This document shows, piece after piece, positions 4,326 to 34,474 of a DNA stretch of 64,000 nucleotides. The position numbers were made by a program, and so were the translations under genes. The DNA lies in IMG/VR virus record IMGVR_UViG_3300042691_031247; one strand, 5' to 3'. The notes under the pieces are model-generated. The model worked only from the letters and a program-made list of their open reading frames with translations, did no database searches and was not told the DNA's origin. The DNA comes from a virus (taxonomy: Duplodnaviria; Caudoviricetes). Each line of letters begins with the position of its first letter. The first letter of the stretch is position 1.

Positions 4326-5588
4326 TTATGTGCAGTTGACTTGCGCGTTCGGTTTTTTCTGGACTGTAATTTGACCGTCGTCGAGCAGGATATTTACGCC
4401 CGCTCCGCCGATTAGATTAACATTTGTACCGCCAACGCCGTTGATAGATGAAATTGTTTCGCAGCAGCGCGGGCCGCCGCTAAAAAATGCCAACACAGAC
4501 TGAACGTCCGGCGGCATGTCTTTTGGAAAATCTTCAAACTCGCCAGTGGGTTGAATCGACACTTCGCCCGTACCGCTGATGACCTCTTCATAAAGTGGGG
4601 TAAAAATCACCTTTGCCGAGCGTACCCACGTTTTATTGTTCCACGTGTAGTAATAAGCCTCGTAGTATGGCGGCGGTGGCGGATCACCGGGCAGCTGTAT
4701 TAGATCTGATTTCCAGCCATACGTATCGCCGATTTTGTTACCGGCGCACACTGCCGGTAACAAGGCGAGAAGCTGAGTTGCAGTGGGCGGGTTTTCTCCG
4801 TGAATATCGAACGCCTCGACAAAGGTTGTCGGTTTAACTAGCCCGAGCGGTAGAGTTTCGTCGGGAAATAGCGGCAATTCTCCGGCGTACTCGCAAAGCT
4901 CGGCGCTTGTTTCTCCGACACCCGCGCCTTTAAACGCGGTAACGGTCAGTTCGTTTGCGCGGTCTGTTTGTGTAATTAAACAGTTGTAGCCTTCTTTTAA
5001 GCGAATATCACCTTTCATACATCGCGCGTTTACAACAATCGGGCGATTGTCGTTTGTGCTGGGCTCGTCACATTCGGGTACACGCACGCGCGCGTAGTTA
5101 CCGACACTGATTGACCGCAGATACGCTTTGTTTAGGTTTTGAATGCGACTGGGCTCGATTTGGTAATCGTTTGGTTGCAGCGCCCATACGCCGCCAGAAG
5201 ATGCCGCCGTAAATGCCGCAGTGAGAGCATCGAGCGGACCAGTAACTAAAAACCCAGACCAAATCGGCTCGGTGGCGCATTCGTTTTCTGTGTCGGCGGC
5301 TGACTCACCGTGTTCGAGCGCCCATTCGCCGTCGTCGTCGTGCCGTGTGAACGATATTGTTTCCGTACTAGCGTCTGTACTGAATACGAATTCAAAAATG
5401 CTGCCCGTTTTTTTAATTGCCGAGAGCCACACTGTATGTTGCGTTTCGTCATAGTGTGCGTCGAGCCCCATGATAAAACCAGCGTCTAAGACGGCACTGG
5501 TTGGCAGTGCGGGCAGCGTCATTGGCTTATTGTAAATAAACGGATACGCGCGGTATTCGTTATCGTTGTAAAATCCGGGACGAGGCAT
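4326..5588 (-). CDS. Baseplate/fibre-associated paralog 1 (RxYP...INGV family)
   Basis: 420 aa. N-terminal [12 protein letters not shown] and C-terminal [13 protein letters not shown] motifs are shared with the four neighbouring genes. Located at the distal end of the tail module. Confidence 0.6.
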
Positions 5589-6394
5589 TAGACAACACTC
5601 CTGCCAACCGTATCAATAACGATTGTCTCGCCGTCGGCGTAAACGCGCAACACATTGTTATTGACAGGCGGTATTTCGCGGCCTGCAACATTCGGCTGGT
5701 CGGTCGCGGTAAATGTGAAATTACCAAACTCGTCTGGTCCGCAGCCGTTAATCGTTTTCAGATATTGTTTGTTAGGGAAGTCTGCCCCTTGTTGCGGCTC
5801 GCACAGAAACCGACGAAATAGGGGCACGCCGATGATATCAATACGAATGACACTTGGACCGTCTTGACGCAACACCACACCCTGATCGCCCACGAGCCAT
5901 ATGTCCCCAGTTAAAAACTGTTTTGTCTCTGGGCGAATCGCCCGTACACCCGGCTCATTCGCTGGAATAACAACGCTGCTTACAAACTCAGTTTGGTCGA
6001 TGTCGAACGGGTACGAGCCGTTGCCCCAGCCAGAAAACCTCGCGAGCGCCGTCGGGGATGACAGCAGCATCCCGGCCGGGCGGCCGTACTGATCTGCAAA
6101 TAACAGCAACCCGTCGGCCGGCGGGCTCAGCGGGTTATACGTCGACGTAACGCGGACGCTTAATTCTTCGTCGCCCACGTTGATTGTGACGCTTTGCGGC
6201 GCTATTACGATGGACGAAATGTATACGCGCTGATAACCACCAATAATAAAAAACGACGCGTCAATAAACGTGTCAGGCGCAATTTGAATATTTTCTGCTG
6301 CGTCGCTTTGAAGCCCAGCGGAGTCGGCAAACGGGTAACGCGACGCCTCTTGCTCGTCACGAAACTCTGGAAATAGGATACGTGTGCCGGCCAT
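5588..6394 (-). CDS. Baseplate/fibre-associated paralog 2
   Basis: 268 aa, with EQEASRYPF and LKTINGCGPDEFGNF motifs. Stop/start overlaps with neighbours. Confidence 0.6.
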   Translation of the reverse strand: MAGTRILFPEFRDEQEASRYPFADSAGLQSDAAENIQIAPDTFIDASFFIIGGYQRVYISSIVIAPQSVTINVGDEELSVRVTSTYNPLSPPADGLLLFADQYGRPAGMLLSSPTALARFSGWGNGSYPFDIDQTEFVSSVVIPANEPGVRAIRPETKQFLTGDIWLVGDQGVVLRQDGPSVIRIDIIGVPLFRRFLCEPQQGADFPNKQYLKTINGCGPDEFGNFTFTATDQPNVAGREIPPVNNNVLRVYADGETIVIDTVGRSVV

Positions 6395-8124
6395 TACTGC
6401 ACCACAAATTTGTTAAAGAATGTTGATGCTTGGTTTGTAAACAGACCAATTGTTCCGGTGACGTCGCCGGGATTGTTGAGGCTAGCTGTTCCGCTTACTG
6501 GGTGCGCGCCGTCAAGTTCTGCAACGGAAAACGACACCGCAAGATTGCTACCGTCTAACGAAAGACTGGCATACATGCGATACCACGTGTTTACCTTTGC
6601 GTTGTAATTAACTGACAGTTCGTCAACAAAAACACTGCCGTTGTATCGAAGCACGCGTACTTTTCCGCGCGTGCTGTCAATGAGCACCACAACGTATCGT
6701 GTTACAACTTGCCCAAGCTCTAGCGTTTGCACATAGTTCAGTACGAGCCCGCCGTTTCGCGCAGCGCCATTTGTGCCAAGTTTAAATTCCCCCATGACCG
6801 ACTTGTTGAGCGCCCAGTCGGTGGCGCAATTTTTTAACACGGCGACATTGGTGCCGCCGATACCCGTTGCGACGTATGTGCCGTGGTTTGTCAGCGTGGC
6901 TCCAATCTCCGGCGAGAATTCGCCCGGCGAGCAGTTACCGCAGATAGGCGGCGCCATCGTCTCTTGCGGCGCAAACGCACCTGTTTTGGTAACAAAATGC
7001 GCGCTGGGCTGGCACGACCCGAAATCAATACACAGCGGTAGCGGCATGCACGCGTATTCTGGCGGATCCAATGTTTCGTCAACGACGATGTCTATCGCGT
7101 CAGTTGGGTCTGGCCAGCAGTACTCATCAAGAACGATATCGGTGTCGGCGTAGTTGGAGCCATCCCACCTATAGACGTTGTTTGTGTCAAACGCCAGATA
7201 AAGTTGATTGAGTTCGCCGGCCGGCGGAAACGAGGCGCGGTTTGCGTACACAGTAATGTTTTCGCCGGTTAGCTCGCAGCAAAGGTCTTTAAACTCTTGT
7301 GGCGGCTTTGGTTTGTTTGCGTCACATACCGCGTCAAGCTCAGTAGTTGTGACAATGTTTGCGCCGCCGCAGTTCTCAAAGTTGAGCGCGGTGAACCCGT
7401 CAAAAATAATATTGATGTTGCCGTCACAGTTTGGTGCGACACCGTTGATTGTTTCAATCGGTGTTTTCGGGCACGTTCCGCTTTCGGGCCGCTGCGCGCA
7501 CGAGCCGAGAAACGTTGACAGCGGGTTGTAATCACCTGTAACCAGTGCGCTATCAAGCCGGAAAACAATTGCGGGATACTCAACCGAGTCATACTGAATG
7601 GTTTCGTATTTAGCGGTTACAGGCGACGTGCCGATAACGTTGACCACGCCCTGCAACGACGTGCCAAGATTGATCTTGCCGATTGTCGGGATCGGAAGCG
7701 GGCGGTATGGGCGCGCGCTGCGCGGCTGTACAAGTGTTTGGCGCGCCGTGCTGTACCTGCCGACAAAAGGAGTGTCTACGCCGGGCCCGAATACCACCCA
7801 GCCCGACACAGCCTCAGCAAGCGGCGTGATCGGGTAGTTCACATATGGCGCCGCGGGCTGCGGAACAGAAACTGCGCATACGGTTTGTCCGGCGTCGTCA
7901 ATGTTGTTTACAGCGCCAAACACCACAGTGACAATTCCAGCAGAGACCGTGATTCCTTGCACGTATAAATATTCGCCCAAGCTGCGTGGAAAACGAATAT
8001 GGCAATCAACAATGATATCTTCACGGATAAACGCACCGCGGTCGTCAACACCCGTTGAAATATCATCAAGCGGGTATCGTCGCGTGGATTGGAGGTTGTA
8101 CCAGTTCTGGTTGCGAATAGACAT
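6394..8124 (-). CDS. Baseplate/fibre-associated paralog 3 with a C-terminal ConA/LamG-like beta-sandwich (possible receptor-binding domain)
   Basis: 576 aa, with WYNLQSTRRYPL and IETINGVAPNCDGNI motifs. The C-terminus (NTWYRMYASL...GTIGLFTNQASTFFNKFVVQ) resembles lectin/DUF1080-like folds. Confidence 0.6.
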   Translation of the reverse strand: MSIRNQNWYNLQSTRRYPLDDISTGVDDRGAFIREDIIVDCHIRFPRSLGEYLYVQGITVSAGIVTVVFGAVNNIDDAGQTVCAVSVPQPAAPYVNYPITPLAEAVSGWVVFGPGVDTPFVGRYSTARQTLVQPRSARPYRPLPIPTIGKINLGTSLQGVVNVIGTSPVTAKYETIQYDSVEYPAIVFRLDSALVTGDYNPLSTFLGSCAQRPESGTCPKTPIETINGVAPNCDGNINIIFDGFTALNFENCGGANIVTTTELDAVCDANKPKPPQEFKDLCCELTGENITVYANRASFPPAGELNQLYLAFDTNNVYRWDGSNYADTDIVLDEYCWPDPTDAIDIVVDETLDPPEYACMPLPLCIDFGSCQPSAHFVTKTGAFAPQETMAPPICGNCSPGEFSPEIGATLTNHGTYVATGIGGTNVAVLKNCATDWALNKSVMGEFKLGTNGAARNGGLVLNYVQTLELGQVVTRYVVVLIDSTRGKVRVLRYNGSVFVDELSVNYNAKVNTWYRMYASLSLDGSNLAVSFSVAELDGAHPVSGTASLNNPGDVTGTIGLFTNQASTFFNKFVVQ

Positions 8125-8127
8125 TGT

Positions 8128-9738
8128 TTAACACGGCGCCTCTGTTTTACCTTCCGCGTTGCAGTGCAGCGTTTGAACCGTTTCTGTGATAGCGGGGAGC
8201 GGCGGTAAGTCGTCGTCTAAGTTGTTTCCGCAGTTTGTCAGGATGGGTTGAGTAGTACCCAAGTATGTGCCAGTTAGCGTGCCAGTCACGACATACGGTC
8301 CGCGCGCGCGTGTGTTTACGGCGGTAAGCGCCGCGGGATCGTATTGGTTAAATTTCACGCGAAATTGTACGTAGGCTGAGTCGCCGGGTTTTAACTGAGG
8401 AAACACGGCCGAATACTGAAAACCATCGCCAGCTACGGCGATACCCACAGCGCTGCCGCGAATACCCGGCGCGTACATTGCCGTGTATCCGCACTCTAAT
8501 TCTGGTCGAATTGCCACCGACGTCTGTGTTTCTGGATCGGCGACTACGAGATCGCCGCTAATAGACAGGTTTAGCGTCAAGCGCGTCGGCTCTACGCACG
8601 TTTGGCAGGGGTTGCACAACATCATAACGATGTCAAGATACGGGCAACGTTGCGGCACCATAAGCAGCCGCAACGGTCGCTGTACGCTACATGAGCGCTG
8701 GTCTAACCACCGCGCAATATTGTTTTCGTGCTCTGTGCGTACCTTCTCTGCGCGCTGCCCGATAAGTTTGTACCGGTAACTCGTCTCGTTCATGTATTTC
8801 GCGGTACTGGCATAATCATCGCAACCGCAGCACGGATCGCAATCCGCGCCGATTTGTTGATGCGCAGTTGTGGACGGGTTTACAGGGTATGGCGCAGCAA
8901 TGCCGACAGTCACGGGCCGGCGGACCCACAAGCAATCCGTCGCGCTGAGCCTAAAGTCTCCGCCGGTACCAGCTACGCCATTAATTTTTGTGATCGGTAC
9001 GGCTGCGCCTTCCGGGCACGCGCCGTACCGGCCCAGACCAGTCCCGGCTACAGCGCTAAAATTAACTTTTGTGATGTTACGAAAATTGTTTGTTTCAGCC
9101 GGCGTGTTTGTAATTTGTGTGCTGTAACCGTTTTCAAACGTAAACGCGCCTGAATACCGCGGCGATGTTGTCTGCCCGTTACGCACGCGCATCGACAATA
9201 GGCGCCGCGGCATTTTGTACACGGCGCGCTCATCTAATCGCGCGTTGGTCGGCGCAAGAAATTTGTCGTAGTTGCGCCGCGTGTCATCGTCTGTTTCTCC
9301 GCTGTCGTCGTCTGGCCATGTCGTGTGCGTGACGAGGCGGCATACCACGCGCGCGGTCTTCCACTCATAAATGCGATAATCGCTGCTCCACGCTTGGGCG
9401 TTAAACGCAGTCGGCTGTGTCGTGGTGTCTAGGATGACGCGATTATTTGCATCGACAACGACAATGTCAGCCGTATGAACAGGCGTAGGAAACCCGGTCG
9501 GCGGCGTGTTTTCAACGCATCCAACGCCGTATAGATATTTAATCCGCAACGGGTGGGCGGCCGGCGTTAACGCTGTGTTGTATTCGCCGTCATCGTCGTA
9601 GGCTAGATGCAGGTCGGCCAACAAGTATCGAATGTCGGCAGACGGCGCGACGAGCGGATAATCTAAGCCGCTCTGCGGTTGAACTACGCCGATGCCGGCG
9701 CGGCCGTTTTTTGATGTCTGAAAGTCGGGGCATGTCAT
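8128..9738 (-). CDS. Baseplate/fibre-associated paralog 4 with PCCGC motif, coiled coil and C-terminal beta domain
   Basis: 536 aa, with QSGLDYPL, ITKINGVAGTGGDF and CDPCCGC motifs. Confidence 0.58.
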   Translation of the reverse strand: MTCPDFQTSKNGRAGIGVVQPQSGLDYPLVAPSADIRYLLADLHLAYDDDGEYNTALTPAAHPLRIKYLYGVGCVENTPPTGFPTPVHTADIVVVDANNRVILDTTTQPTAFNAQAWSSDYRIYEWKTARVVCRLVTHTTWPDDDSGETDDDTRRNYDKFLAPTNARLDERAVYKMPRRLLSMRVRNGQTTSPRYSGAFTFENGYSTQITNTPAETNNFRNITKVNFSAVAGTGLGRYGACPEGAAVPITKINGVAGTGGDFRLSATDCLWVRRPVTVGIAAPYPVNPSTTAHQQIGADCDPCCGCDDYASTAKYMNETSYRYKLIGQRAEKVRTEHENNIARWLDQRSCSVQRPLRLLMVPQRCPYLDIVMMLCNPCQTCVEPTRLTLNLSISGDLVVADPETQTSVAIRPELECGYTAMYAPGIRGSAVGIAVAGDGFQYSAVFPQLKPGDSAYVQFRVKFNQYDPAALTAVNTRARGPYVVTGTLTGTYLGTTQPILTNCGNNLDDDLPPLPAITETVQTLHCNAEGKTEAPC

Positions 9739-9741
9739 ACG

Positions 9742-10683
9742 TCACCCCGTTGAGCAGCCGGAGTCGCCGAGCTGGCTGCCCAACACGACCAGACTCATCT
9801 GGGTTACTTCAGACCCGAGACGTGTAATGAAATTTTGTAATGTCATAACGCCGTCACCAAAACGATTAATCTGATCGACAATGGCGTCAAGCTCAGTACA
9901 CCCGCAGCACGGCTGCGCGCACGTATCAGCAAACTTTAAACCGTTACTCATCGGCGTAATTTGCACGCAGTCATCGGGCGCAAGAATAAAGTTGCCGTCC
10001 GTGCTACACACCCCGTTAATGCAGCGAATGCAGTCGCCGATTTCGGGCGTTTCGCAATAGCACTCTTCGTTGAGGTTTGTGCCGGAGATTGCGTCAAAAA
10101 TGATTTCTGTTTCTGTGGCGAACGCTACTGCCGTGATCCGCACATTGTTGCCGGCGACCAGCGTCACATCTCCGTAAATCGGCGCGCTCAGTTCACCGTT
10201 GTTCGACACGCGGAGCCGTGTTACGGCGCGCAGCATCGGCCGGATAGTGTCGGGCTCTAACTCGCCGTCGGTAAAAGTAAATTCATACTGGCCGGGCGGC
10301 AGCTGATCGACCTCGTCAAGATTGCCGAGTACAACGCGGCCAACACAGTCGTCAAAGTTATCTACGCCGCCAAGCGCATATGACCGGTTTGGCTGATAAT
10401 TGCTGCGAATAACGTTTGCTGACGCGACGTCGACCGCGGTGCCGTTGTCGTCGTACCCAATAGTGATGTTAAACCCGGTCGGGGCAATTAGCAGGCTTTT
10501 GATAAAAAAACGGTTCGGCGCAAAAGCCAGACCAGAATGAATCGGCAGGTAGAGCGCGACAATAAAGCTGTCGGGCAGCCGAATAGTTCCAGTCGTATCT
10601 GTTTTGGTGGCGCGCTCTGTCAGCGGATATGACCGCTGAGAGTTATGGTTGAGCCACTGTAGATTCCAATTTCCGATGGGCAT
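9742..10683 (-). CDS. Baseplate/fibre-associated paralog 5 with PCCGC motif and C-terminal coiled coil
   Basis: 313 aa, with WLNHNSQRSYPL, IRCINGVCSTDGNF and CAQPCCGC motifs. Confidence 0.6.
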   Translation of the reverse strand: MPIGNWNLQWLNHNSQRSYPLTERATKTDTTGTIRLPDSFIVALYLPIHSGLAFAPNRFFIKSLLIAPTGFNITIGYDDNGTAVDVASANVIRSNYQPNRSYALGGVDNFDDCVGRVVLGNLDEVDQLPPGQYEFTFTDGELEPDTIRPMLRAVTRLRVSNNGELSAPIYGDVTLVAGNNVRITAVAFATETEIIFDAISGTNLNEECYCETPEIGDCIRCINGVCSTDGNFILAPDDCVQITPMSNGLKFADTCAQPCCGCTELDAIVDQINRFGDGVMTLQNFITRLGSEVTQMSLVVLGSQLGDSGCSTG

Positions 10684-10699: not shown

Positions 10700-12562
10700 T
10701 TATGTCGCGCTATAAACGATTCCCGTAACGCGCAATACGCCGATTTCGCCGTAGACGTTATCCTCGTTTCGACCGATGGTTACCAACACTGTGTCGCCCT
10801 CTTCAACGACAATTGGCGCACTCTCGCGCGTGATGACGTGATCAATAAACAAATTGGCGCTGGAATTAAACGTTAGCGGATTGTCTGCTGTTATAAGCTG
10901 TTCTCCGTCAATCGCCGTCAGCGCGGGCGCAGTTAAAACGCGCCGCGTCATATACAACGACGGCATTACCTTTCGATTTCCGTTTGGAAAAGCTCCGCCG
11001 TCGCGCCCGAACAGCTGCACACGAATTTTCATTTCAAGATTGTCGCCAAGGTTGCTTCCGGGGACATTAAAACGCATACGTAGTAGCGCCGCCTGCCCGC
11101 CCGGAAAACCAAGGTAAGGAATATCCATGTACAACCGCTCGACGGTATCGCTTAGCCGAATGATTTGCGGCGCGATCTCGCGTTCGACGAGCTGATCGGT
11201 GTAGTCAATTTTCAGGATACCCTGATGCAGCGTAATTGGGCTTGTCGTGGTGAGATTGAACTGTTGTTTTTCTTGTGTCGTCAGCGTACGCGGGCTGGCA
11301 CGCGAGCCAGTGATCGCTAGTTGGTTAGACGTTGTAAACGCGCCTTCTGCCAACCAGCCTCTCGTTAACTGGTGGCGGTTAATTACGCTTTTAAACGCCT
11401 GCCCGCCCATAGCCTCAGCCGCTGCAATCTGCAGGTCTAGATTAAGCTGAAGATCGCCCGTAGACGCCGGGTCATCAGCGCAGTTCGATATCGCGATCGG
11501 GCTGTTGATGGTCTGAGCCGCTGGCGTGGGTTGTGTTTCGGCCGCCGTGCCGTCTACGTCTTTTACAAGACTCGTGACGACGTTGCGGTCATTGCCGACG
11601 AGCATACGCAAATACACAACTGATACGCGCATGTTCTCGTAGCGGGGACACTCGCCTGTCTCGCTCGGGTGTTCTGTCGGAGCTGCAAACGGAACGTCGT
11701 CTTCGCAGTCACTCATCCACCAAATGCCGTTTGTGTCGCAGACCGCCAAGCCAGTAGAACCGAGCGGGATTTCTGTAGCGCCGACATGATCGACGCCCTT
11801 GTCCCACAGCATTGCGACAGACTGAATCGGTAGCGGGGGCCACACGTTCGAGAGCGCCGAATGCTGACTTAAGTTGTAGCCAAACGCTGCGCCTGTCGGC
11901 GCTTTGCCGTTAAAGGTTGGATGACTTGCGGGCAGCCAGCCGGGATCATTTGCGGTCGCAGCCTGTAGCGGAACAAGATCAAAGCGGTAGTGCGTGTGCT
12001 CGTCGATAAAGTCGCGAATGTGCGGCATGACTACCACACGCGGTACAGTCGTGCAGCTATCCTTCGGGCCCTGTACGTGGCACACTGTTACTGTGACAGG
12101 CGGCTTTTGTTTAACAAGTTTGCCGGCGTCGGTAGCTGATAAGTAATAGCGGCCCGGCGTGATCGACCCCGCGATCGCGTTTGCTAAGTCAGGAATCTCG
12201 ACGATGCCGCGCAGCACAATGTCGCCAAGCGTCTCGGAGCGCTTTCGCAAACAGATGCCAACGCAATCTGACGACGGCTGCACAAGCAGCACTTGCGTTT
12301 CAGGATCAGACGCAACAGCGGCAAGCGCGGGCTCGTAGCGCTTTTCTACCCAGTTCCAGTACACAGGCTGACCGGGCAGCACTGAGCTGCAGATCGTCGC
12401 GTCGCTGTCGACAAGTACGCGGCCGAGGGCAGCAGCGTCAAGTCGGTCTTTTAGATAGTCAGTGCGGTCTTCGAGCGTGCGGTCAGGGCGTGAAACGACC
12501 CCGGCCTGTACAGGCTCTCCCGGATTGACATGTTTAAGGTTATGCAGCCAGTTACCGGACAT
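10700..12562 (-). CDS. Tail fibre / baseplate-attached fibre protein
   Basis: 620 aa. The N-terminal GEPVQAGVVSRPDRTLEDRTDYLK resembles myophage fibre baseplate-attachment segments (N..L..RT.YLK). A GQPVYW / GRYYLS..AG.L beta module follows. Confidence 0.62.
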   Translation of the reverse strand: MSGNWLHNLKHVNPGEPVQAGVVSRPDRTLEDRTDYLKDRLDAAALGRVLVDSDATICSSVLPGQPVYWNWVEKRYEPALAAVASDPETQVLLVQPSSDCVGICLRKRSETLGDIVLRGIVEIPDLANAIAGSITPGRYYLSATDAGKLVKQKPPVTVTVCHVQGPKDSCTTVPRVVVMPHIRDFIDEHTHYRFDLVPLQAATANDPGWLPASHPTFNGKAPTGAAFGYNLSQHSALSNVWPPLPIQSVAMLWDKGVDHVGATEIPLGSTGLAVCDTNGIWWMSDCEDDVPFAAPTEHPSETGECPRYENMRVSVVYLRMLVGNDRNVVTSLVKDVDGTAAETQPTPAAQTINSPIAISNCADDPASTGDLQLNLDLQIAAAEAMGGQAFKSVINRHQLTRGWLAEGAFTTSNQLAITGSRASPRTLTTQEKQQFNLTTTSPITLHQGILKIDYTDQLVEREIAPQIIRLSDTVERLYMDIPYLGFPGGQAALLRMRFNVPGSNLGDNLEMKIRVQLFGRDGGAFPNGNRKVMPSLYMTRRVLTAPALTAIDGEQLITADNPLTFNSSANLFIDHVITRESAPIVVEEGDTVLVTIGRNEDNVYGEIGVLRVTGIVYSAT

Positions 12563-12586
12563 CCTTGTCCTCCGGCAGTTAGTTGA

Positions 12587-13219
12587 TTACAGGAATGCGA
12601 CATCCCACGTGATGCCGATCTGAGATGACGCTTCCTTGGTCACCTGATGCTCGCTATCAAATACTGTGCGCGCAAATACAACGTCCTTAGACCGGTCGTT
12701 AATCGCCGGCGCAGCCACGAGGGCGGCGGCATATACGCGGCTGTTCGTCACGTTGCTGAAACGCCGCTCCTCGCCGCCATAGACCACTCGCGCTTCTGCG
12801 GTCTGCGCAAAAAATGTTAATTGATTGCCCGACTGATTGACGGGCAGATTTGCTTCATACCCCGACGACACGCTTAGCGCCGGTTCAATAGTGAGCGGCA
12901 CCCGAATGAAATTACGCGACGACGAATCGGCGAGCGAGTTGTAGTACGTGATGTCTACGTTGCGACTAAACGTCGGCGTGGAAATTTGAATCCCCGGGTC
13001 GACATTCTCGTATTCGATGTACATGGCTGAGATGTGGTAATCCAGCCGGTCGGGCTGGCGGCGGTACCCGAGTTGTTTCGCGGCGATAAAACCCCAGCCG
13101 TACTGGATCTGGTTGGACTGCGAAAACAGCGGCAACTTCAAACCAGTCTTCTCGTCGACGCGCCACACCGACACGTGTCCGCGTACGCCAAAAGCTGGGG
13201 TAATGTTATCGGCAGCCAT
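12587..13219 (-). CDS. Baseplate wedge / tail-collar-fibre-attachment-like protein
   Basis: 210 aa. Pattern G.V.V..VD..TG......NQI..G at the N-terminus and FARTVF....K.....I.W.V.F at the C-terminus, typical of this myophage family. Confidence 0.6.
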   Translation of the reverse strand: MAADNITPAFGVRGHVSVWRVDEKTGLKLPLFSQSNQIQYGWGFIAAKQLGYRRQPDRLDYHISAMYIEYENVDPGIQISTPTFSRNVDITYYNSLADSSSRNFIRVPLTIEPALSVSSGYEANLPVNQSGNQLTFFAQTAEARVVYGGEERRFSNVTNSRVYAAALVAAPAINDRSKDVVFARTVFDSEHQVTKEASSQIGITWDVAFL

Positions 13220-13228
13220 GTGTTGTCC

Positions 13229-14956
13229 TTATTGGCATGTTCCAGATACAAGTCGCGCCGTCGCGCCCAGATCACTGACTAATGATACCGGCACGGTGTC
13301 GGTTTGGGGGTCCATACCGGTGAAACGCTGCACGGTCTCCGCCGTCAAGTGTTCGGGGTTTATGCTATCTTTATCGGCCGTCAGCTCAAAAATCGCAATC
13401 ATGGCCGTGTGTGGCGGCAATAATTGACGTAGATGCCTAATATTGTACAGTCCCAGCTGATTTAACCCTAGCGCGTTCACATAAATTCGTACTACAAACA
13501 CGTTGTTTCGTAGCACGTTTTCCACGAGAAAACGCAGCGGATTAATAGTCTTCGGCAACTGCGACGCGGTCGGTTCCGTGCCGGCGTTTACGCGCTTGTC
13601 TAGCAGGTGCGCAAGCGTGCCGATTTTTAACTTTGGCGCGCAATCGGGCTGCGATTTGCGTAGCTCCGCTGCCTGCACGCCCCGGGCATGTACCTCGTCA
13701 AAAAACTGCTCAATGTCCGCCGGGTACCCGCCGAGCCGAAATTTTACATACGTGTAACCACTTGGATGTGTCGTGTTTACTTCGAGCGGAACGAGTTTGT
13801 TTTCAAACACGATGTCGCCATAAAAGCACGACGCCAAAAATCCGCTATCGACAGCAATGGCGGCGATTGTTTTTCTAACCGGTTGACACTGCTCGTCGTT
13901 TGGATCTACAAGCAGCTCTTCTTCGCTTTCGGTTGTGAGCGCGTCCCACGCGTTGCTCGACAAGATGTTATTCGGCGGAGGGCAGCACAATACGCTTTGC
14001 TCTGGCGCCCGCGCATAAGAGTTACCGACAAAAAACTCGTGCACGTCGACGCCGTACACAAGAGGCGTGCCGGCCGTTACGCGCTGTTCGACCGCTACGC
14101 GCGGTACCGCGGTCTCTGGAAAGCGATAGACCGCTTTGTCGGTAACTATTAATAATCCTCGTGCGTCGTTGTCTACGCGCTCGACAACCTCTTCTGGTTC
14201 GACGCTAATTGGGACGCCGCAGATAGCTGCAATAGCGGCGTCAAGAATTGCCGCCGTCGCGCCGCCTTCTACCAGACCAGAGATGACAGCGTTGGTGAGA
14301 TCCTTGTAGCCCTGACTTGTTCGGAGCTTTATACCGACGGCGTATGCAAATTGGTTGAAAATGTTGTTGTAGTCAAACTTACCGCAGAACGCCCACAACG
14401 TAAGTTCTTCGTCGTCCGCCGTGTCTGCAGCCGGTCGTTTCGTGAACACCGGGTTTTCAAACGGGTCTTTGGCAAAAATCAAAGCGCCGCGCTCGACGTC
14501 GATAAGAAAGTCGAGGTTTTTGCTGAGGACGCCTGTCGGAAACGTGATGCGATTAAACAGTTGCGCGGCGTCTACAAGCCCGGCCGGCAGCGGGAAAGAA
14601 AAGAACGGGGCGTTTACATTCGCGGCGTCAAACTGTAAGCCGCCATCAAACACAGCGGACGGGTCGCGATCAAACCGCGCGATTGTTGTCCGCGCGGAGT
14701 TGCGCTCGGATTTTTTCAAAACAACAGGGGTAAGCTTCTCCGTGTGAAATAACGGAATATCAAATCGGCTTAGCGCTTCGATGGTCTCGATCAGGTTTTG
14801 ATACGTCTGGTTTACGACGTGTGCTGTCGCGTCGGCATACGAATGCACTTGATCAACGCCGGTGTAGAGGCGTGACCAGAAGCTACCAAGCGCCGCAATT
14901 AAATTGCGACTGCGGTCAAAGTCTGATCCGGGATATACAAACTCAGGCTTTTTCAT
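13229..14956 (-). CDS. Baseplate wedge subunit, P2 gpI / T4 gp7-like
   Basis: 575 aa, directly downstream of gpJ. Contains YKDLTNAVISGLVEGGAT..ILDAAIAAICG and a C-terminal LLPPHT, equivalent to the KPAHT motif. Confidence 0.68.
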   Translation of the reverse strand: MKKPEFVYPGSDFDRSRNLIAALGSFWSRLYTGVDQVHSYADATAHVVNQTYQNLIETIEALSRFDIPLFHTEKLTPVVLKKSERNSARTTIARFDRDPSAVFDGGLQFDAANVNAPFFSFPLPAGLVDAAQLFNRITFPTGVLSKNLDFLIDVERGALIFAKDPFENPVFTKRPAADTADDEELTLWAFCGKFDYNNIFNQFAYAVGIKLRTSQGYKDLTNAVISGLVEGGATAAILDAAIAAICGVPISVEPEEVVERVDNDARGLLIVTDKAVYRFPETAVPRVAVEQRVTAGTPLVYGVDVHEFFVGNSYARAPEQSVLCCPPPNNILSSNAWDALTTESEEELLVDPNDEQCQPVRKTIAAIAVDSGFLASCFYGDIVFENKLVPLEVNTTHPSGYTYVKFRLGGYPADIEQFFDEVHARGVQAAELRKSQPDCAPKLKIGTLAHLLDKRVNAGTEPTASQLPKTINPLRFLVENVLRNNVFVVRIYVNALGLNQLGLYNIRHLRQLLPPHTAMIAIFELTADKDSINPEHLTAETVQRFTGMDPQTDTVPVSLVSDLGATARLVSGTCQ

Positions 14957-14958
14957 AA

Positions 14959-16674
14959 TCAGCGCGTCCAGCCGGCGGAGACTACGGATACCGATACATC
15001 TTGCGGGCTTGTTAAGAACGCGGTGGTGCGTCCGGTGACGAGCCGCGCAACGTCGTCGGGGATTTGCAGAATCGTGTTATCACGCACAAAAGCCGTGCTG
15101 CCGTCTGGCCGGCGAATACGGCCAAACATATCAATACCCCCGAGCGCTTGCTGCGCTGTGAGGTACTGGTGCGCTGCCGTACCGATAAGCGACGCGTGCA
15201 GCTGGCCAGAGAAACCAACACCGGCGACAGCCTTACTTACGGCCGCCTTGATCGCTTCAATATCTGGCGTCGGGTCAGCCGCGTTCTTACGAATTTCAAA
15301 CGCAATTTTTGTAAAGCACGGGATCGGAGCTTTGACCAGTACGTCTGCGGCGCGGGAGCGCGTTTCGCGGGACGCCATGTAATCTTGAAGCTCCGCGATC
15401 AGCGGGAGCCCGGCCGTAGTGATTGAGTACAGCCGTTTTGTTTGTCCCGGCGTCAGCGTCGGGTTTGGCTGGATGTCCGTGTTTACAAACCGGATCGTGG
15501 CTGTCTGGTAGCGTGTATATGCGCTTTCAGTTAGATACAGGATGTCAGGAATGAAGTCGAAATCAGAGAAGTCAACATTCCGCTCGTCGCTTAGCACAGA
15601 GTAATTGACTGGTAATGCCGCCGCGGGATTTACGATGCCGACAACTTCATAAAAACCGGGCGCAAGGTCACGACCGATTGATACCTGCCAGATGGTTCCT
15701 GTCGGTGTGCCGCCCACCAAGTCGCGCTCGTCGCACGGACCGGTCGCGTTTTGCTGGGGCGAATACGGCCCGATATACGTCGCTTCTAACAGGTGCTCGC
15801 GTTCTTGCGCATACGCGTTGGTGTGCGCATAGATATCCACTTTGCCGCCACCGGAGATCGGAAAGAGGGAGTGCTGATCGCGCTGCTGCTCCGCGTCTCC
15901 GCAGCCGAGCACAGACAGGTGCAGCGTATTAGCAAAAACGGGTTGCGTTTTAATGGCCGCCATGTAGCTCTGCCGGCTGCCGATCGTTTTTGCGGCTAAA
16001 CCGGTAGACAGGCGCGTAAGGTATTCGGCGTTGGTCGCCGGGTCGCGCCCGTCGATAAAGTCGGCACTGGCATAAAGATCTACAACGTTGCTGATCGAGC
16101 CGCGGCTGTTTAGCCGTGTGCGGCGGCGGATGTTACCGGCATCACCCACGACGCTAGCAATGACAGTAATTGTCGCGGCGTACGTGCCGTCACCGACAGC
16201 CACCATTTTGCGCTGATCTGGTTCCGTGGCCGGCAGCAGCGGGTCTGTTGGGAACACCACAAAGTTTTGTGTCGGACTAAAAGTAATGTCGCCGTCCTCG
16301 ATACCAAAAATCGCCGCGGTTGTGATCTCCGTGCGAATGTCAGAGTTGAAGACAACTGTGACATAACCCACCGCGGGGGAACCGTTGTCGCGCGCTACAT
16401 TGAAATTAGACAGTACCTGATCGACGATATCGGTGTCGGCGAGATCTGGATTCTGTGTGATGCTCAGCAAGCTCTGACTCTGCAGCACGCGATCAACGTT
16501 TTCTTGAATTGCCGCGTTTAACAGTCCGTCAAAGTACAGTACGAGATCGTGGAACACACCACGCGACAGCTCGACCTCGGGATGACGTTCGGCCATCAGC
16601 TGCGATAACGTCGCAACCATCGCCTGTACTTTTTCAGGGTTAAGCTGTTTGAGGCTGGAAATGGCAATCGGCAT
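14959..16674 (-). CDS. Baseplate J-like protein (P2 gpJ / T4 gp6)
   Basis: 571 aa. Contains VDQVLSNFNVARDNGSPAVGYVTV, ASVVGDAGNI and FIDGRDPATNAEYLTRL, the canonical gpJ pattern. Confidence 0.9.
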   Translation of the reverse strand: MPIAISSLKQLNPEKVQAMVATLSQLMAERHPEVELSRGVFHDLVLYFDGLLNAAIQENVDRVLQSQSLLSITQNPDLADTDIVDQVLSNFNVARDNGSPAVGYVTVVFNSDIRTEITTAAIFGIEDGDITFSPTQNFVVFPTDPLLPATEPDQRKMVAVGDGTYAATITVIASVVGDAGNIRRRTRLNSRGSISNVVDLYASADFIDGRDPATNAEYLTRLSTGLAAKTIGSRQSYMAAIKTQPVFANTLHLSVLGCGDAEQQRDQHSLFPISGGGKVDIYAHTNAYAQEREHLLEATYIGPYSPQQNATGPCDERDLVGGTPTGTIWQVSIGRDLAPGFYEVVGIVNPAAALPVNYSVLSDERNVDFSDFDFIPDILYLTESAYTRYQTATIRFVNTDIQPNPTLTPGQTKRLYSITTAGLPLIAELQDYMASRETRSRAADVLVKAPIPCFTKIAFEIRKNAADPTPDIEAIKAAVSKAVAGVGFSGQLHASLIGTAAHQYLTAQQALGGIDMFGRIRRPDGSTAFVRDNTILQIPDDVARLVTGRTTAFLTSPQDVSVSVVSAGWTR

Positions 16675-31237: not shown

Positions 31238-34200
31238 TTAGACAACTAAGTGCAGCTCAATGTTGTTGAGCGGCGCCGGGACAGTCAGATCAAGCACAAT
31301 CTCGATACGATCCTTAAGCAGCGGATGAATCTGCAGCTTACGAATCGCGCCGTCGATGAGTTGCGAACCCAGCTCCTCGGTATTACCGTTGCCCTTGAGG
31401 AAATCGATAATCGCCGTGACCTCGTAACGTAACCGACGTACCATGCCCGGCTGCGCGTTCGTGCGGCCGATGAACGGCTTCAGACGGCGGTAGAACAGGT
31501 ACGACATGCTGTCGACGTTACGACGAATCATCTCTTCGCGGCGGTTCAGATCGAGGTTGTCGGTCGTCAAGGCGTGACGCGTGTGCGGCGTGCCGTCCTT
31601 GTCTTCCGTCACGATCCAGACGCCGGCCTCAGCCATGCGGTTAAGCTGGGTTTCGTTGAGGTACTTGTAGGAGCGCGAGAAGTCGTCGAACCCGGCGACC
31701 TCGACGTTCGTCAGCGGCTGGTGGGGCACCACACCGGAGACGAGACCGGCCAGAGCGGCCGCGAGGTAGTAACCGGGCTGAATCGTGCCGGCTTCGCCGA
31801 CCTGATCCGGCCACACGGCGCACACGCGACGGTTCGAAAGCGAACCGCCTTGTTGTGCAACGTCTTCAACGATCTCGTTGCGGTTGCGGTTATGCCAGAC
31901 CTCGACACGCTGCGGAACTGTAACAGCGGCGTCAGCGCCGGAGTACAGCAGCAGGGTCGATTCCGAGATAACCTGATCAACCACGTACTCTTCGTACTGC
32001 TCCTCGCCGAACCCGTCGACCGAGTAGTTGTAGCGCACGATATCGCCGGGACGTACGTCATTCGTGATGAAGTAGCCGTTGCCCGACGTGACCGTCAGCT
32101 TCGTGTACTGCGTGTTGGTGGCGTTCGGGTCGTCGGAGAGCGTGGCAAGAACCGGATCGTCGACCGTCTCGCCAAGCACACCTTCGATGTTAACGCCTTC
32201 ACCAACAACCTTCACGACCGGAACCGCCTTGAGGGCGAAGAAGCCAGCCTTCCAGTTGTTTGCGTACTCGTTCGACTCGCCGCCAATGTGCGCAGCCCAC
32301 AGGTTTTGAATCCTGCGGTCGAACGTCATCGGAACGAGGTTATACATGTCGTCGCGACCCTTGATGCGCTCAAGCACCTGCACCCACTTGTCCATGTCGA
32401 CACCGAGCGAACGACCCTCTTGGTCGTACTTCTCGGGGTCGGCCACGGCGGTGTACTTCACTACGGTGCCGTTGCTGTTAGAGAGCGCCTTGTAAACGCC
32501 CCACTTCAGCGGGTTATCAGGATCGAGCTGGCCCTTGATTTGATCAAGGTCAGCCACGTCGCTGATCGAGTTGACCTGATCGGCCAGCTCAGACAGCCAC
32601 TCGCGGTACTCGACGTACACCTTGCCGGAGATAACCGGCAGGGGCTGCTCGGCGCCAGCGCTTGTCCACTCGGGGTGGTAAGCGACGATGCCTTCCTGTA
32701 CGCAGATCTGGGTGTCTTCGTACCAGAAGTTGGTCATCGGGGCGAATCCGATCCGATTCTTCGAGATCTGGATGTTGTCCTTGATGAACAGCTTAAGGTC
32801 CATGTCTTCGCCGCTGATCAGCTGGCAAGTTGCCGTAGCTGTCACCGCGCCGGGGCCGGACGGCGGCGCCGAAAGCGTGACAGTCGGGGCGCTGGTGTAG
32901 CCGGCGCCACGATCCGTCACAACAACGCCGACAACCATGTCGTCGTTTTCGCCTTGGATGCTGCCGAGCACGGCATAACCGACGGCAGTACGAGCCTGCA
33001 CAAGGTTGCCTGTCGGAGCCGAGAACGTCACAGTCGGGGCGGCGCCGTAACCCGAGCCAGCATTCGTGATGCTGACCGGACCCACCTTGTCGACCGGCGC
33101 GCCGTCCTGCGTGAGCAGTACGGTCGGGAGGTCGTCGCGGAGGATAAGCTGGCGGACCGGGCCGGCCTTGCTGGAGTTAACAGTGATGTACCACTTGTCA
33201 CCCTTGCGGAGACCAGCAACAGCGAAGTTGTCCTCTTGGTCGGTGGCGCCAAGGAAACGAACCTTTACGCCATTCGTGCCGATCGCTACGGAGATGGCGT
33301 TGCCGCCAGCGCCGTCGCCGACAACTTCGGTCGGGCCGGAGAAGTCGAGGCCCTTGACCGTGCGGACAGTGATCTCAGGAAGCTGAGCCCACGTGCCGCC
33401 CTTGGTGCACTCGATGACGTAGGTGTCGTTCTTGGTGCCAGCGTACTTGCCAAGGATGTCAACCGCACCCTGCACGCCGTTTACCGACTCTTCAGTCTGG
33501 TACACGCCGTCAGCGTCCGAAACAGCCTTGACCTTTTCGTACGTCTGCTTGACGTCGAACTTCCACTTCTGACCGACAACAAAGTTATCAAGACCAGTTG
33601 TCGTGAAGCGCACCGAGAGGCCGCGCGTGCCGATGAACGTCACGCCGTCGTTGTCGTCAAAGTCGTTCGGCTGAATTTCAGCCTGATCGTCTGTGCCGGT
33701 TCCCGACACAACGCGCAGACGCGCGGCGTTGCAGCCGGCAATCGTGCTCTTGATGACTTCGACGTAATACTCTTCTTCAACTGCACCGGAGACAAGACCG
33801 TCGTAATCATTGGCGCCTTCGTCTTGGGCGCCAAGAACGGTCACTGCAACTGCGTTATCAACACCCTCGATCTGCGTAACAGTTACGTCAACGCCGTTGG
33901 CGCTTTCGGCTGTGTAGCTGTCTTGGTTGTTAACGTCAGCAGTGGCGGGCAGAATGCGCGACGGAACAAGGTCGCTGGCAAAGCCGGTTACATATGTCTC
34001 AAGCACAGTCTCGATGCAGTCGTTGTCGGCGCTCACAGTGCGGAGCTGAACAACGTCGCCGAGCTGAACGTCACGATCGAAGAACACGCTCGAACGCGGG
34101 TACGCAGCGCCGTTCGACTTGAACGACAGTGTGCTGGACTGCACCCAGTTGGTCTTGCCGGGAACGGCTGTAATCGTCGTGTCGCTCTCGCCCATGTTGT

Positions 34201-34474
34201 GCTGGTAGTAGCGCAGCATGGCGTCGTCAACATAAAGCTTGACGTAAGGAAGATCGACAACAGAGCCGGGCAGACGTTGCGGCCACGTGTAGCACGTATC
34301 GTTAAGACGATCGTACTGACCGAGAAGGCTGAACCGCTTCTCGTCCGTGTTGCTATAGCGGTGAAGAATGCCGTGCGGACCAGCGATGTGGGCGCGCAGC
34401 GGTTCCGTGATCTCCGTGGGGACGATACGGAACTCTTGGAAAACGAGTACTTGTGGTTTTACGTAGCTCGACAT
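31238..34474 (-). CDS. Contractile tail sheath protein (large, with inserted domains)
   Basis: 1078 aa. Sheath C-terminus (YYLAAALAGLVSGVVPHQPLTN; EEMIRRNVDSMSY; DRIEIVLDLTVPAPLNNIELHLVV). Strong codon bias and a GGAGG SD. Confidence 0.93.
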   Translation of the reverse strand: MSSYVKPQVLVFQEFRIVPTEITEPLRAHIAGPHGILHRYSNTDEKRFSLLGQYDRLNDTCYTWPQRLPGSVVDLPYVKLYVDDAMLRYYQHNMGESDTTITAVPGKTNWVQSSTLSFKSNGAAYPRSSVFFDRDVQLGDVVQLRTVSADNDCIETVLETYVTGFASDLVPSRILPATADVNNQDSYTAESANGVDVTVTQIEGVDNAVAVTVLGAQDEGANDYDGLVSGAVEEEYYVEVIKSTIAGCNAARLRVVSGTGTDDQAEIQPNDFDDNDGVTFIGTRGLSVRFTTTGLDNFVVGQKWKFDVKQTYEKVKAVSDADGVYQTEESVNGVQGAVDILGKYAGTKNDTYVIECTKGGTWAQLPEITVRTVKGLDFSGPTEVVGDGAGGNAISVAIGTNGVKVRFLGATDQEDNFAVAGLRKGDKWYITVNSSKAGPVRQLILRDDLPTVLLTQDGAPVDKVGPVSITNAGSGYGAAPTVTFSAPTGNLVQARTAVGYAVLGSIQGENDDMVVGVVVTDRGAGYTSAPTVTLSAPPSGPGAVTATATCQLISGEDMDLKLFIKDNIQISKNRIGFAPMTNFWYEDTQICVQEGIVAYHPEWTSAGAEQPLPVISGKVYVEYREWLSELADQVNSISDVADLDQIKGQLDPDNPLKWGVYKALSNSNGTVVKYTAVADPEKYDQEGRSLGVDMDKWVQVLERIKGRDDMYNLVPMTFDRRIQNLWAAHIGGESNEYANNWKAGFFALKAVPVVKVVGEGVNIEGVLGETVDDPVLATLSDDPNATNTQYTKLTVTSGNGYFITNDVRPGDIVRYNYSVDGFGEEQYEEYVVDQVISESTLLLYSGADAAVTVPQRVEVWHNRNRNEIVEDVAQQGGSLSNRRVCAVWPDQVGEAGTIQPGYYLAAALAGLVSGVVPHQPLTNVEVAGFDDFSRSYKYLNETQLNRMAEAGVWIVTEDKDGTPHTRHALTTDNLDLNRREEMIRRNVDSMSYLFYRRLKPFIGRTNAQPGMVRRLRYEVTAIIDFLKGNGNTEELGSQLIDGAIRKLQIHPLLKDRIEIVLDLTVPAPLNNIELHLVV

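Follow-up and report, generated by a model that had tools for sequence, protein, structure and literature searches.

Five tandem genes of an uncultured freshwater phage are diverged paralogues that probably encode an outer-baseplate and short-fibre set

What do five adjacent genes in the tail region of an uncultured freshwater phage of ~200 kb encode, and how did they arise? The genes lie in a 64,000-nucleotide (nt) stretch of DNA, referred to here as the window, from IMG/VR record IMGVR_UViG_3300042691_031247 (Duplodnaviria; Caudoviricetes); the parent virus record is 198,101 bp long, with an estimated completeness of 97%. An earlier reading of this DNA from its letters (the sequence-only reading) had described five consecutive open reading frames (ORFs) at positions 4326–10683 as diverged, duplicated genes of a baseplate/fibre module. 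All five ORFs are present at these positions on the minus strand, and we refer to them, 5′ to 3′ on that strand, as P1–P5. We find that the five proteins are homologous, and on balance we favour the explanation that they are an anciently duplicated family of fibre-type virion proteins, most likely the outer-baseplate and short-fibre set of a freshwater jumbo myophage. The five genes are as follows (lengths in amino acids, aa; evidence in brackets).

9742–10683, minus strand: P1, 313 aa, the best-conserved paralogue, with a core, a cysteine cluster (PCCGC) and a predicted C-terminal coiled coil (ORF, translation, AlphaFold2)
8128–9738, minus strand: P2, 536 aa, in which a diverged N-terminal domain is followed by the shared shaft, PCCGC, a helix and, C-terminally, a beta domain (ORF; HHalign to P1)
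6394–8124, minus strand: P3, 576 aa, with the core, a linker carrying a short YxW hairpin motif, and a C-terminal lectin-like domain (ORF; HHalign to P1)
5588–6394, minus strand: P4, 268 aa, the core alone, with two cysteines (ORF; HHalign to P1)
4326–5588, minus strand: P5, 420 aa, the most diverged core, with an ING motif near the C-terminus (ORF; HHalign to P1; three collinear hmmsearch pieces)

The relationship among the five proteins was measured by comparing family profiles of 22 sequences each, in all ten pairs, using HHalign. Scores ranged from 34 to 115 for eight of the ten pairs, against a maximum of 28.9 over 55 null comparisons involving six unrelated neighbour families and reversed profiles; the P3–P5 and P4–P5 pairs were not significant. 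Direct BLASTP comparison supported only the P1–P2, P1–P3 and P1–P4 pairs. We also searched exhaustively with a P1 profile over 1.84 billion representatives, which yielded 819 matching clusters at 50% identity, 367 of them below 1e-30. Adding the best 150 matches, which are 29–51% identical to P1, gave a deep P1 profile of 151 sequences. HHalign alignments of this deep profile were strong for P2 (99.2%, expect value (E) 6e-20, P1 residues 134–286 with P2 residues 160–330), P3 (98.9%, E 1e-17, P1 1–237 with P3 1–242), P4 (98.8%, E 1e-16, P1 4–238 with P4 5–232) and P5 (97.9%, E 4e-13), whereas four control families of unrelated neighbours scored 0.2–0.3%. The alignments were collinear over 150–222 residues. 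In addition, HMMER searches with the family profiles cross-detected the paralogues in the window, in the whole genome, and in independent distant genomes, and found no sixth copy in the 198-kb record. Because the HHalign values are far above those of the controls and HMMER gives cross-matches, we regard the homology of P1–P5, including the most diverged member, P5, as established. The check put forward with the sequence-only reading was to align the proteins, build a profile hidden Markov model (HMM) and search databases, with a lack of significant profile-profile similarity counting against common descent; when this was done, significant similarity was found. The five could have been unrelated genes with motifs that resemble one another by chance or through low complexity, and the lack of BLASTP significance for some pairs, such as P3–P5 and P4–P5, would fit this. 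We give that explanation virtually no weight: it is excluded by profile-profile E values of 4e-13 to 6e-20 with clean controls, by collinearity over about 190–220 residues, and by the HMMER cross-matches in independent genomes.

The shared, ordered motifs described from the sequence proved to be unevenly distributed. Two of them occur in all five proteins: xxYP[FL], at residues 13–29 (RSYPL in P1, LDYPL in P2, RRYPL in P3, SRYPF in P4 and RAYPF in P5), and ING[VC], which is followed by G[ND]F in P1, P2 and P4; the ING motif of P5 was recovered by hmmsearch as the third of its collinear pieces. P1, P3 and P5 each have a clear GxVVxG, of which P2 and P4 show a weak form. Clear copies of GD[VI]xLxxGxN occur in P1 and P5; P4 has a shortened version (GDIWLVGDQG), and those of P2 and P3 are degenerate. 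[IL]EPxxI is confined to P1 and P5. The motifs occupy the same columns in the profile-profile alignments.

The array is conserved well beyond this phage. All five genes are present in the same order in 27 of 27 related viral contigs. Distant relatives, in which P1 is 30–37% identical to that of the window, retain a Baseplate_J-like gene, counterparts of the three genes that lie between it and the array (575, 210 and 620 aa), and P1–P5 (locus L036, and locus L029 as far as the end of its contig). Another distant locus, L034, lacks P2 and P3 and retains P1, P4 and P5, its P1 being a 931-aa form. We computed a maximum-likelihood tree of 48 core sequences from near and distant phages, with support given as ultrafast bootstrap and Shimodaira–Hasegawa-like approximate likelihood-ratio test (SH-aLRT) values. 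Each orthologue group lay on one side of a branch for P3 (99/99), P4 (99/98), P5 (100/99) and P1 (84/77). The P2 group did so (98/94) except for one row, from locus L016, which fell outside on a very long branch, a misplacement that most likely stems from how that 816-aa protein was sliced. Since the orthologue groups of P1, P3, P4 and P5, and of P2 but for this one row, separate in near and distant phages alike, the tree indicates that the duplications are older than the radiation of this clade, as had been supposed when the duplication was called ancient.

We next consider the surroundings of the array. A tail sheath gene at 31238–34474 (minus strand) identifies a contractile-tail module. 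Reading 5′ to 3′ along the minus strand, the sheath gene is followed by genes for a 1628-aa protein, a sigma-70-like protein, a Baseplate_J/gp6-like protein, the 575-, 210- and 620-aa proteins, P1–P5, and a collagen fibre. The genes flanking the array are as follows.

14959–16674, minus strand: Baseplate_J/gp6-like wedge gene, lying upstream of the array (Pfam PF04865 with E 5e-8, scoring over the gathering threshold; phrog_6, E 1e-12)
10700–14956, minus strand: three conserved genes of 575, 210 and 620 aa with no assigned family, between the J-like gene and P1
2–4324, minus strand: giant gene for a collagen-repeat fibre protein of >1441 aa, immediately downstream of P5 (Pfam Collagen, E 4e-51)

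Neighbouring genes in this part of the window are all on the minus strand, and those of the array are tightly packed, with 3-nt spacers or 1-nt overlaps, and translationally coupled. Given the sheath, J-like and collagen fibre genes, the array occupies the position at which phages with contractile tails have their outer-baseplate and fibre genes, in agreement with its earlier assignment to a baseplate/fibre module. The 575-, 210- and 620-aa genes are conserved and syntenic in all relatives, including the distant loci, and are not homologous to P1–P5 (HHalign, as controls, 0.1–0.7%). None of their products has a Pfam or PHROG relative, and PDB sequence searches with the 575-aa, 620-aa and J-like proteins returned nothing; the 620-aa protein varies in its middle part and measures 442–623 aa among relatives. 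A copy of the shared core at the N-terminus of the giant collagen fibre was considered and ruled out, as none of the five family HMMs matches there. At L029, the baseplate operon also includes a metallophosphatase gene (Pfam Metallophos; L029:3804–4541, plus strand), immediately before the gene that matches the J-like profile.

We predicted the structure of P1 using AlphaFold2. A first run, with 22 close sequences, gave a poor model (predicted local distance difference test score, pLDDT, of 55) for which fold searches returned only a generic C2-like sandwich. By contrast, a second run with the deep alignment gave a pLDDT of 88 and a predicted template modelling score (pTM) of 0.60. This model consists of an N-terminal peptide with a short helix (residues 10–16), a C2-like beta-sandwich, beta-hairpins (147–253) and a 45-residue helix (262–306), a domain layout of the core that is supported by models only. 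The corresponding features are listed here.

10618–10683, minus strand: P1 N-terminal peptide, residues 1–22, containing RSYPL (alignment of orthologues)
10249–10611, minus strand: P1 predicted C2-like beta-sandwich, residues 25–145
9919–10236, minus strand: P1 beta-strand shaft, residues 150–255, with GDVTLVAGNN, INGV...GNF and conserved cysteines (predicted trimer interface; motifs align across paralogues)
9766–9900, minus strand: P1 C-terminal helix, residues 262–306, a predicted trimeric coiled coil (AlphaFold2; contacts in the trimer model)

Modelling three copies of P1 together gave a homotrimer with a median ipSAE of 0.47, whereas the best of three controls reached 0.00. At least 72% of the contacts are common to the runs, and the pLDDT of the partner is at least 71. 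The interface extends over residues 151–303 and takes in the shaft (151–256) and its two motifs, as well as the cysteine cluster and helix positions in the 3–4 spacing of a/d-type contacts; no residue of the N-terminal domain is named in it. Models thus support P1 being a parallel homotrimer held together by its shaft and coiled coil, and this model fits a set of five separate homotrimers at least as well as it fits a mixed hub. Inter-chain disulfides or metal binding are possible roles for the conserved cysteines of the predicted interface (in P1, C208, C210, C239, C255, C259, C260 and C262); phage Milano is a precedent for a tail with a disulfide network (PMC10811340).

The proteins differ most at their distal ends, where the sequence-only reading had proposed a different C-terminal add-on for each, including a lectin-like one. 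The differences are real, as seen in the AlphaFold2 model for P1, feature searches for P2 and P3, and the alignment of P5. P1 carries PCCGC and a predicted coiled coil; P2 carries PCCGC, a helix and, possibly, an immunoglobulin (Ig)-like domain; P4 carries no add-on; and P5 carries a short cap, with an insertion in 3 of 22 sequences. For residues 395–576 of P3, a language-model feature search gave matches of 0.94–0.95 to 3keto-disac_hyd, Laminin_G, GH59 lectin and sialidase-CBM clusters, so the lectin-like add-on is probably the P3 C-terminus; no Pfam family matched this domain in P3 or in any of 21 orthologues.

8131–8706, minus strand: P2 C-terminal region, residues 345–536, possibly Ig-like (DUF11/CARDB-like; language-model feature search 0.89–0.91, a lead only)
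6397–6942, minus strand: P3 C-terminal domain, residues 395–576, probably a concanavalin-A-like lectin jelly roll (feature search 0.94–0.95)
4485–4853, minus strand: P5 insertion, residues ~246–368 (alignment of 22 sequences)

The P5 insertion is found in the window, L002 and L013 only, and is missing from the other 19 aligned orthologues (column occupancy 0.12–0.35). Within the P3 linker, a 35-residue motif at residues 289–323 (window 7156–7260) matches PHROG families named 'minor tail protein' and 'peptidase'. The same motif (...LP..G....Y...DT...Y.W.G..Y) is also inserted at different places in P5 orthologues, namely in the N-termini of those from L007, L008 and L019 and in the P5 insertion of the window (4485–4853), and it appears to be a mini-domain that moves among fibre proteins.

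Conservation along the proteins follows a gradient. The first 40 residues are the best-conserved block in each of the five families, and the N-terminal peptides, which differ among the five paralogues, are each nearly invariant within their own orthologues; that of P1 is nearly unchanged across orthologues at 59–95% identity. The C-terminal add-ons are the most variable parts, differing in sequence and length and carrying insertions and deletions, and the C-terminal region is the most variable part of the P2 family. P3 orthologues at L025–L027 consist of the core only (294 aa) without the lectin-like domain, whereas at the distant locus L032 the P3 core is fused to PA14 and alkaline phosphatase domains in a protein of 2389 aa. 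Among close relatives, P1 (313–320 aa) and P4 (256–276 aa) show hardly any variation in length. A conserved N-terminal part with a variable, exchangeable distal part, seen here in the conservation profiles and in domain loss, gain and fusion, is a trait of the fibre/tailspike class, and the conservation pattern of the array appears typical of fibres. The P3 orthologue of L032 is encoded at L032:8038–15204 (plus strand), with Pfam matches to alkaline phosphatase (E 2e-23) and PA14 (E 1.5e-12); it is unusual for a putative phage fibre to carry such an enzyme. The P5 of L034 (447 aa) has an internal duplication of its N-terminal domain, and the fibre region of that locus (L034:22429–22796 and beyond) continues with a 2069-aa protein containing Laminin_G_3 domains.

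Searches for known relatives returned little. None of the five proteins matched a Pfam family at E up to 1 or a relevant PHROG at E up to 0.1, except for the 35-residue motif of P3, and 68 P1 orthologues had no PHROG in common, with two single-member chance matches only. Sequence and profile searches of the PDB with P1, P2 and P3 gave nothing usable, and all database homologues bear the name 'hypothetical protein'. We found no match by tblastn of P1, its distant orthologue P0154 and the J-like protein against 50,697 phage records, none by megablast of the DNA against the phage records, no related loci in a P0154 search of viral contigs, and no match of the P1 model to the records of phages Arash and phiKZ (phiKZ at E up to 1). 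Foldseek searches of the PDB, a wide viral set, BFVD and the Atlas with the pLDDT 88 model of P1 yielded no secure match, and an Atlas feature search with the whole of P1 scored below 0.8. The closest shapes were unannotated viral proteins and trimeric autotransporter adhesins, with TM scores of about 0.33 or less.

We infer from these results that the five proteins are located in the virion, dock through their N-termini, and act in part as adhesins. The shared core would comprise a ~20-residue N-terminal xxYP[LF] peptide, a C2-like beta-sandwich, and a shaft of interdigitating beta-strands bearing GD[VI]xL and ING[VC]...GN. The shaft, together with the cysteine cluster and coiled coil in P1 and P2, would form a parallel trimer, and the N-terminal module would dock each paralogue at its own, non-equivalent site on the baseplate. 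Five distinct docking sites are suggested by the five differing N-terminal peptides, each nearly invariant among orthologues, and a site for each paralogue would explain why five have been retained in a fixed number and order. Distally, the set would display a coiled coil (P1), a coiled coil with an Ig-like domain (P2), a lectin-like domain (P3), nothing (P4), and a cap with or without the insertion (P5). P3, and probably P2 and P5, may bind host surface glycans, while P1 and P4, which are constant in length and have no distal domain, may be struts or connectors, possibly for the adjacent giant collagen fibre; the set as a whole would thus combine the roles of strut and adhesin, and might also anchor that fibre.

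The main competitor is a hetero-oligomeric hub, in which the homologous shafts co-assemble into mixed trimers, or into a larger complex of fixed stoichiometry, to form one composite structure. T4 (gp6)2–gp7 is an example of such a mixed complex. The region of P1 predicted to trimerise (151–256) is exactly the part that is common to all paralogues, P1 and P2 both have the PCCGC-and-helix segment, and translational coupling, constant co-occurrence and fixed order also speak for it. There is also a precedent in phiKZ, where tandem paralogues are proposed to build a hetero-hexameric fibre base (PMC13250141). However, the P1 homotrimer model passes on its own, the lack of P2 and P3 at L034, where P1, P4 and P5 are retained, is evidence against a complex that needs all five, and the proteins differ greatly in the length of their C-terminal parts (268–576 aa in total here, 2389 aa in L032), which would be awkward for mixed parallel trimers. 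We consider the hub to be a possible arrangement, if an unlikely one. An elaboration of it, that the five co-assemble with fixed stoichiometry into a new type of peripheral baseplate, in which a module cross-linked through its cysteine clusters by disulfides or metal builds an outer ring with adhesins and collagen fibres, seems to us more doubtful still. A different proposal is that the five are interchangeable receptor-binding proteins that compete for, or branch from, a single attachment site, and so constitute a host-range cassette. The multi-tailspike phages CBA120 and phiK64-1 are models for this arrangement, and it agrees with the conserved N-termini and variable C-termini, the exchange of distal domains among P3 orthologues (lectin-like or PA14), and the insertions and deletions in P2 and P5. 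Yet P1 and P4 have near-constant lengths and no obvious binding domain, which makes a pure host-range cassette unlikely, and N-terminal peptides that are distinct from one another but individually invariant point to five docking sites rather than one. The number and order of the genes are also stable over deep divergence, unlike those of typical receptor-binding cassettes with fast turnover, and we rate this proposal as quite improbable.

Several points weigh against the favoured explanation, that of five homologous proteins docking separately at the outer baseplate. The phage is uncultured, and the case for the five being virion proteins comes from gene order. The core does not convincingly resemble any solved or annotated structure, so that the term 'fibre' depends on architecture, context and the predicted trimer. 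In calibration, 20 of 30 proteins solved as pairs of one chain reached the mark used for the trimer model, as did 1 of the 23 whose structures are single chains, counts that are only rough here, as a run with its own alignment and three copies falls outside the calibration. Mixed trimers are possible, the shaft motifs being common to all five proteins, and the lectin-like and Ig-like calls for P3 and P2 are leads from a language model without Pfam support. Moreover, the nearest cultured relative with proteomics, phage Arash, lacks the array; its baseplate operon stops after gp13–gp17.

The closest parallel in a described phage is that with gp131–gp135 of phiKZ, tandem paralogues that have an N-terminal domain in common, differ in their C-termini, and form fibres at the outer baseplate; gp131, gp133, gp134 and gp135 are proposed to make a hetero-hexameric fibre base with a six-helix bundle (PMC13250141; for the paralogue family, Sycheva et al., 2012, as cited in PMC13250141). 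In both cases a jumbo myophage carries the five genes in tandem in its tail region, and their products have a common N-terminal domain, divergent C-terminal domains, and a helix bundle (predicted for ours) after the N-terminal domains. The phiKZ proteins attach at the periphery of the baseplate, with a presumed role in host binding (PMC13250141); a peripheral position of P1–P5 is predicted from gene order. At residues 8–13, gp131 (...GLYPFDP...) and gp133 (...LQLPFDP...) of phiKZ (L031:16483–20606) recall xxYP[FL], which could reflect convergence on a docking peptide, or chance. Despite these likenesses we detected no homology: all five profiles scored 0.1–0.2% in HHalign against an alignment of the gp131, gp133, gp134 and gp135 N-termini. 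The reported phiKZ assembly is a hetero-hexamer, whereas the state supported by prediction here is a homotrimer, and gp131 has a seven-bladed propeller where the distal domains of our array appear to be a coiled coil, lectin-like and Ig-like. The cysteine clusters have no known counterpart in phiKZ. By analogy, then, the array would work like gp131–gp135 without being a member of that family. The earlier claim that such a module is not found in T4 or P2 baseplate models is true for its sequence and overstated as to novelty, since gp131–gp135 has the same design (PMC13250141).

More distant comparisons are with T4, trimeric autotransporter adhesins, and two unannotated proteins. The array lies downstream of a gp6-like J gene, much as T4 gp10, gp11 and gp12 are encoded next to wedge genes. 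These three T4 proteins are trimeric and evolutionarily related, and link the baseplate beyond the gp6/gp7 wedge to the short fibres. However, none of our proteins has a Pfam (E up to 1), PHROG (E up to 0.1) or PDB sequence match to the T4 gp9–gp12 families, and the P1 model has no convincing fold match among solved structures. YadA-type trimeric autotransporter adhesins, which are among the predicted-structure clusters nearest to the P1 model, have a similar architecture, and only that: in their obligate parallel trimers an extended beta region leads into a long coiled coil. They differ in that TM scores are 0.19–0.32 (usually indicating another fold), there is no sequence relation, and P1 has no membrane anchor and occurs in a phage context. 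The best BFVD matches to the P1 model are a 1189-aa protein of Pseudomonas phage Zuri (A0A5C1K5Z5) and A0A7D7J739, both unannotated, with probabilities of 0.99–1.00 over ~195–200 columns; with E values of 0.02–0.04, TM scores of 0.31–0.34 and root-mean-square deviations of 10–12 Å, they are not secure.

The principle of paralogous fibre-base proteins in a jumbo-phage baseplate is therefore known; what is undescribed is this family of proteins, with its predicted fold and cysteine-rich trimer shaft. The array would be a second, sequence-unrelated example of the phiKZ solution, a fibre base built from tandem paralogues, and it makes the evolution of complex outer baseplates by duplication testable in another lineage. 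If the five do co-assemble into a ring, a very abundant clade of jumbo phages from fresh water would have invented an outer baseplate of the T4/phiKZ type independently. The family is large, with 819 clusters found with the P1 profile alone, and is restricted to uncultured phages; the analysis provides a first annotation for ~6 kb of 'hypothetical' structural genes per ~200-kb genome. P2, P3 and P5 are candidate places for host-recognition determinants, and the conserved cysteine clusters in the predicted trimer interfaces are a target for work on disulfide or metal stabilisation of phage tails.

The phage is widespread, and its clade is abundant in fresh water. DNA nearly identical to positions 4326–10683 of the window occurs in freshwater and lake metagenomes of more than ten studies; the 20 runs that contain it span 13 studies. 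In 17 metagenome runs, mostly labelled freshwater or lake water and dated 2019–2025, no fewer than half of the words sampled from this stretch are present. No RNA run is listed among the public runs that contain the stretch, and two of the 17 runs are labelled 'fungus metagenome'. A search of genome contigs found relatives on only three contigs of metagenome-assembled genomes (MAGs), which are probably binned phage DNA; one relative's contig is binned in a Synechococcaceae MAG, a weak hint as to the host.

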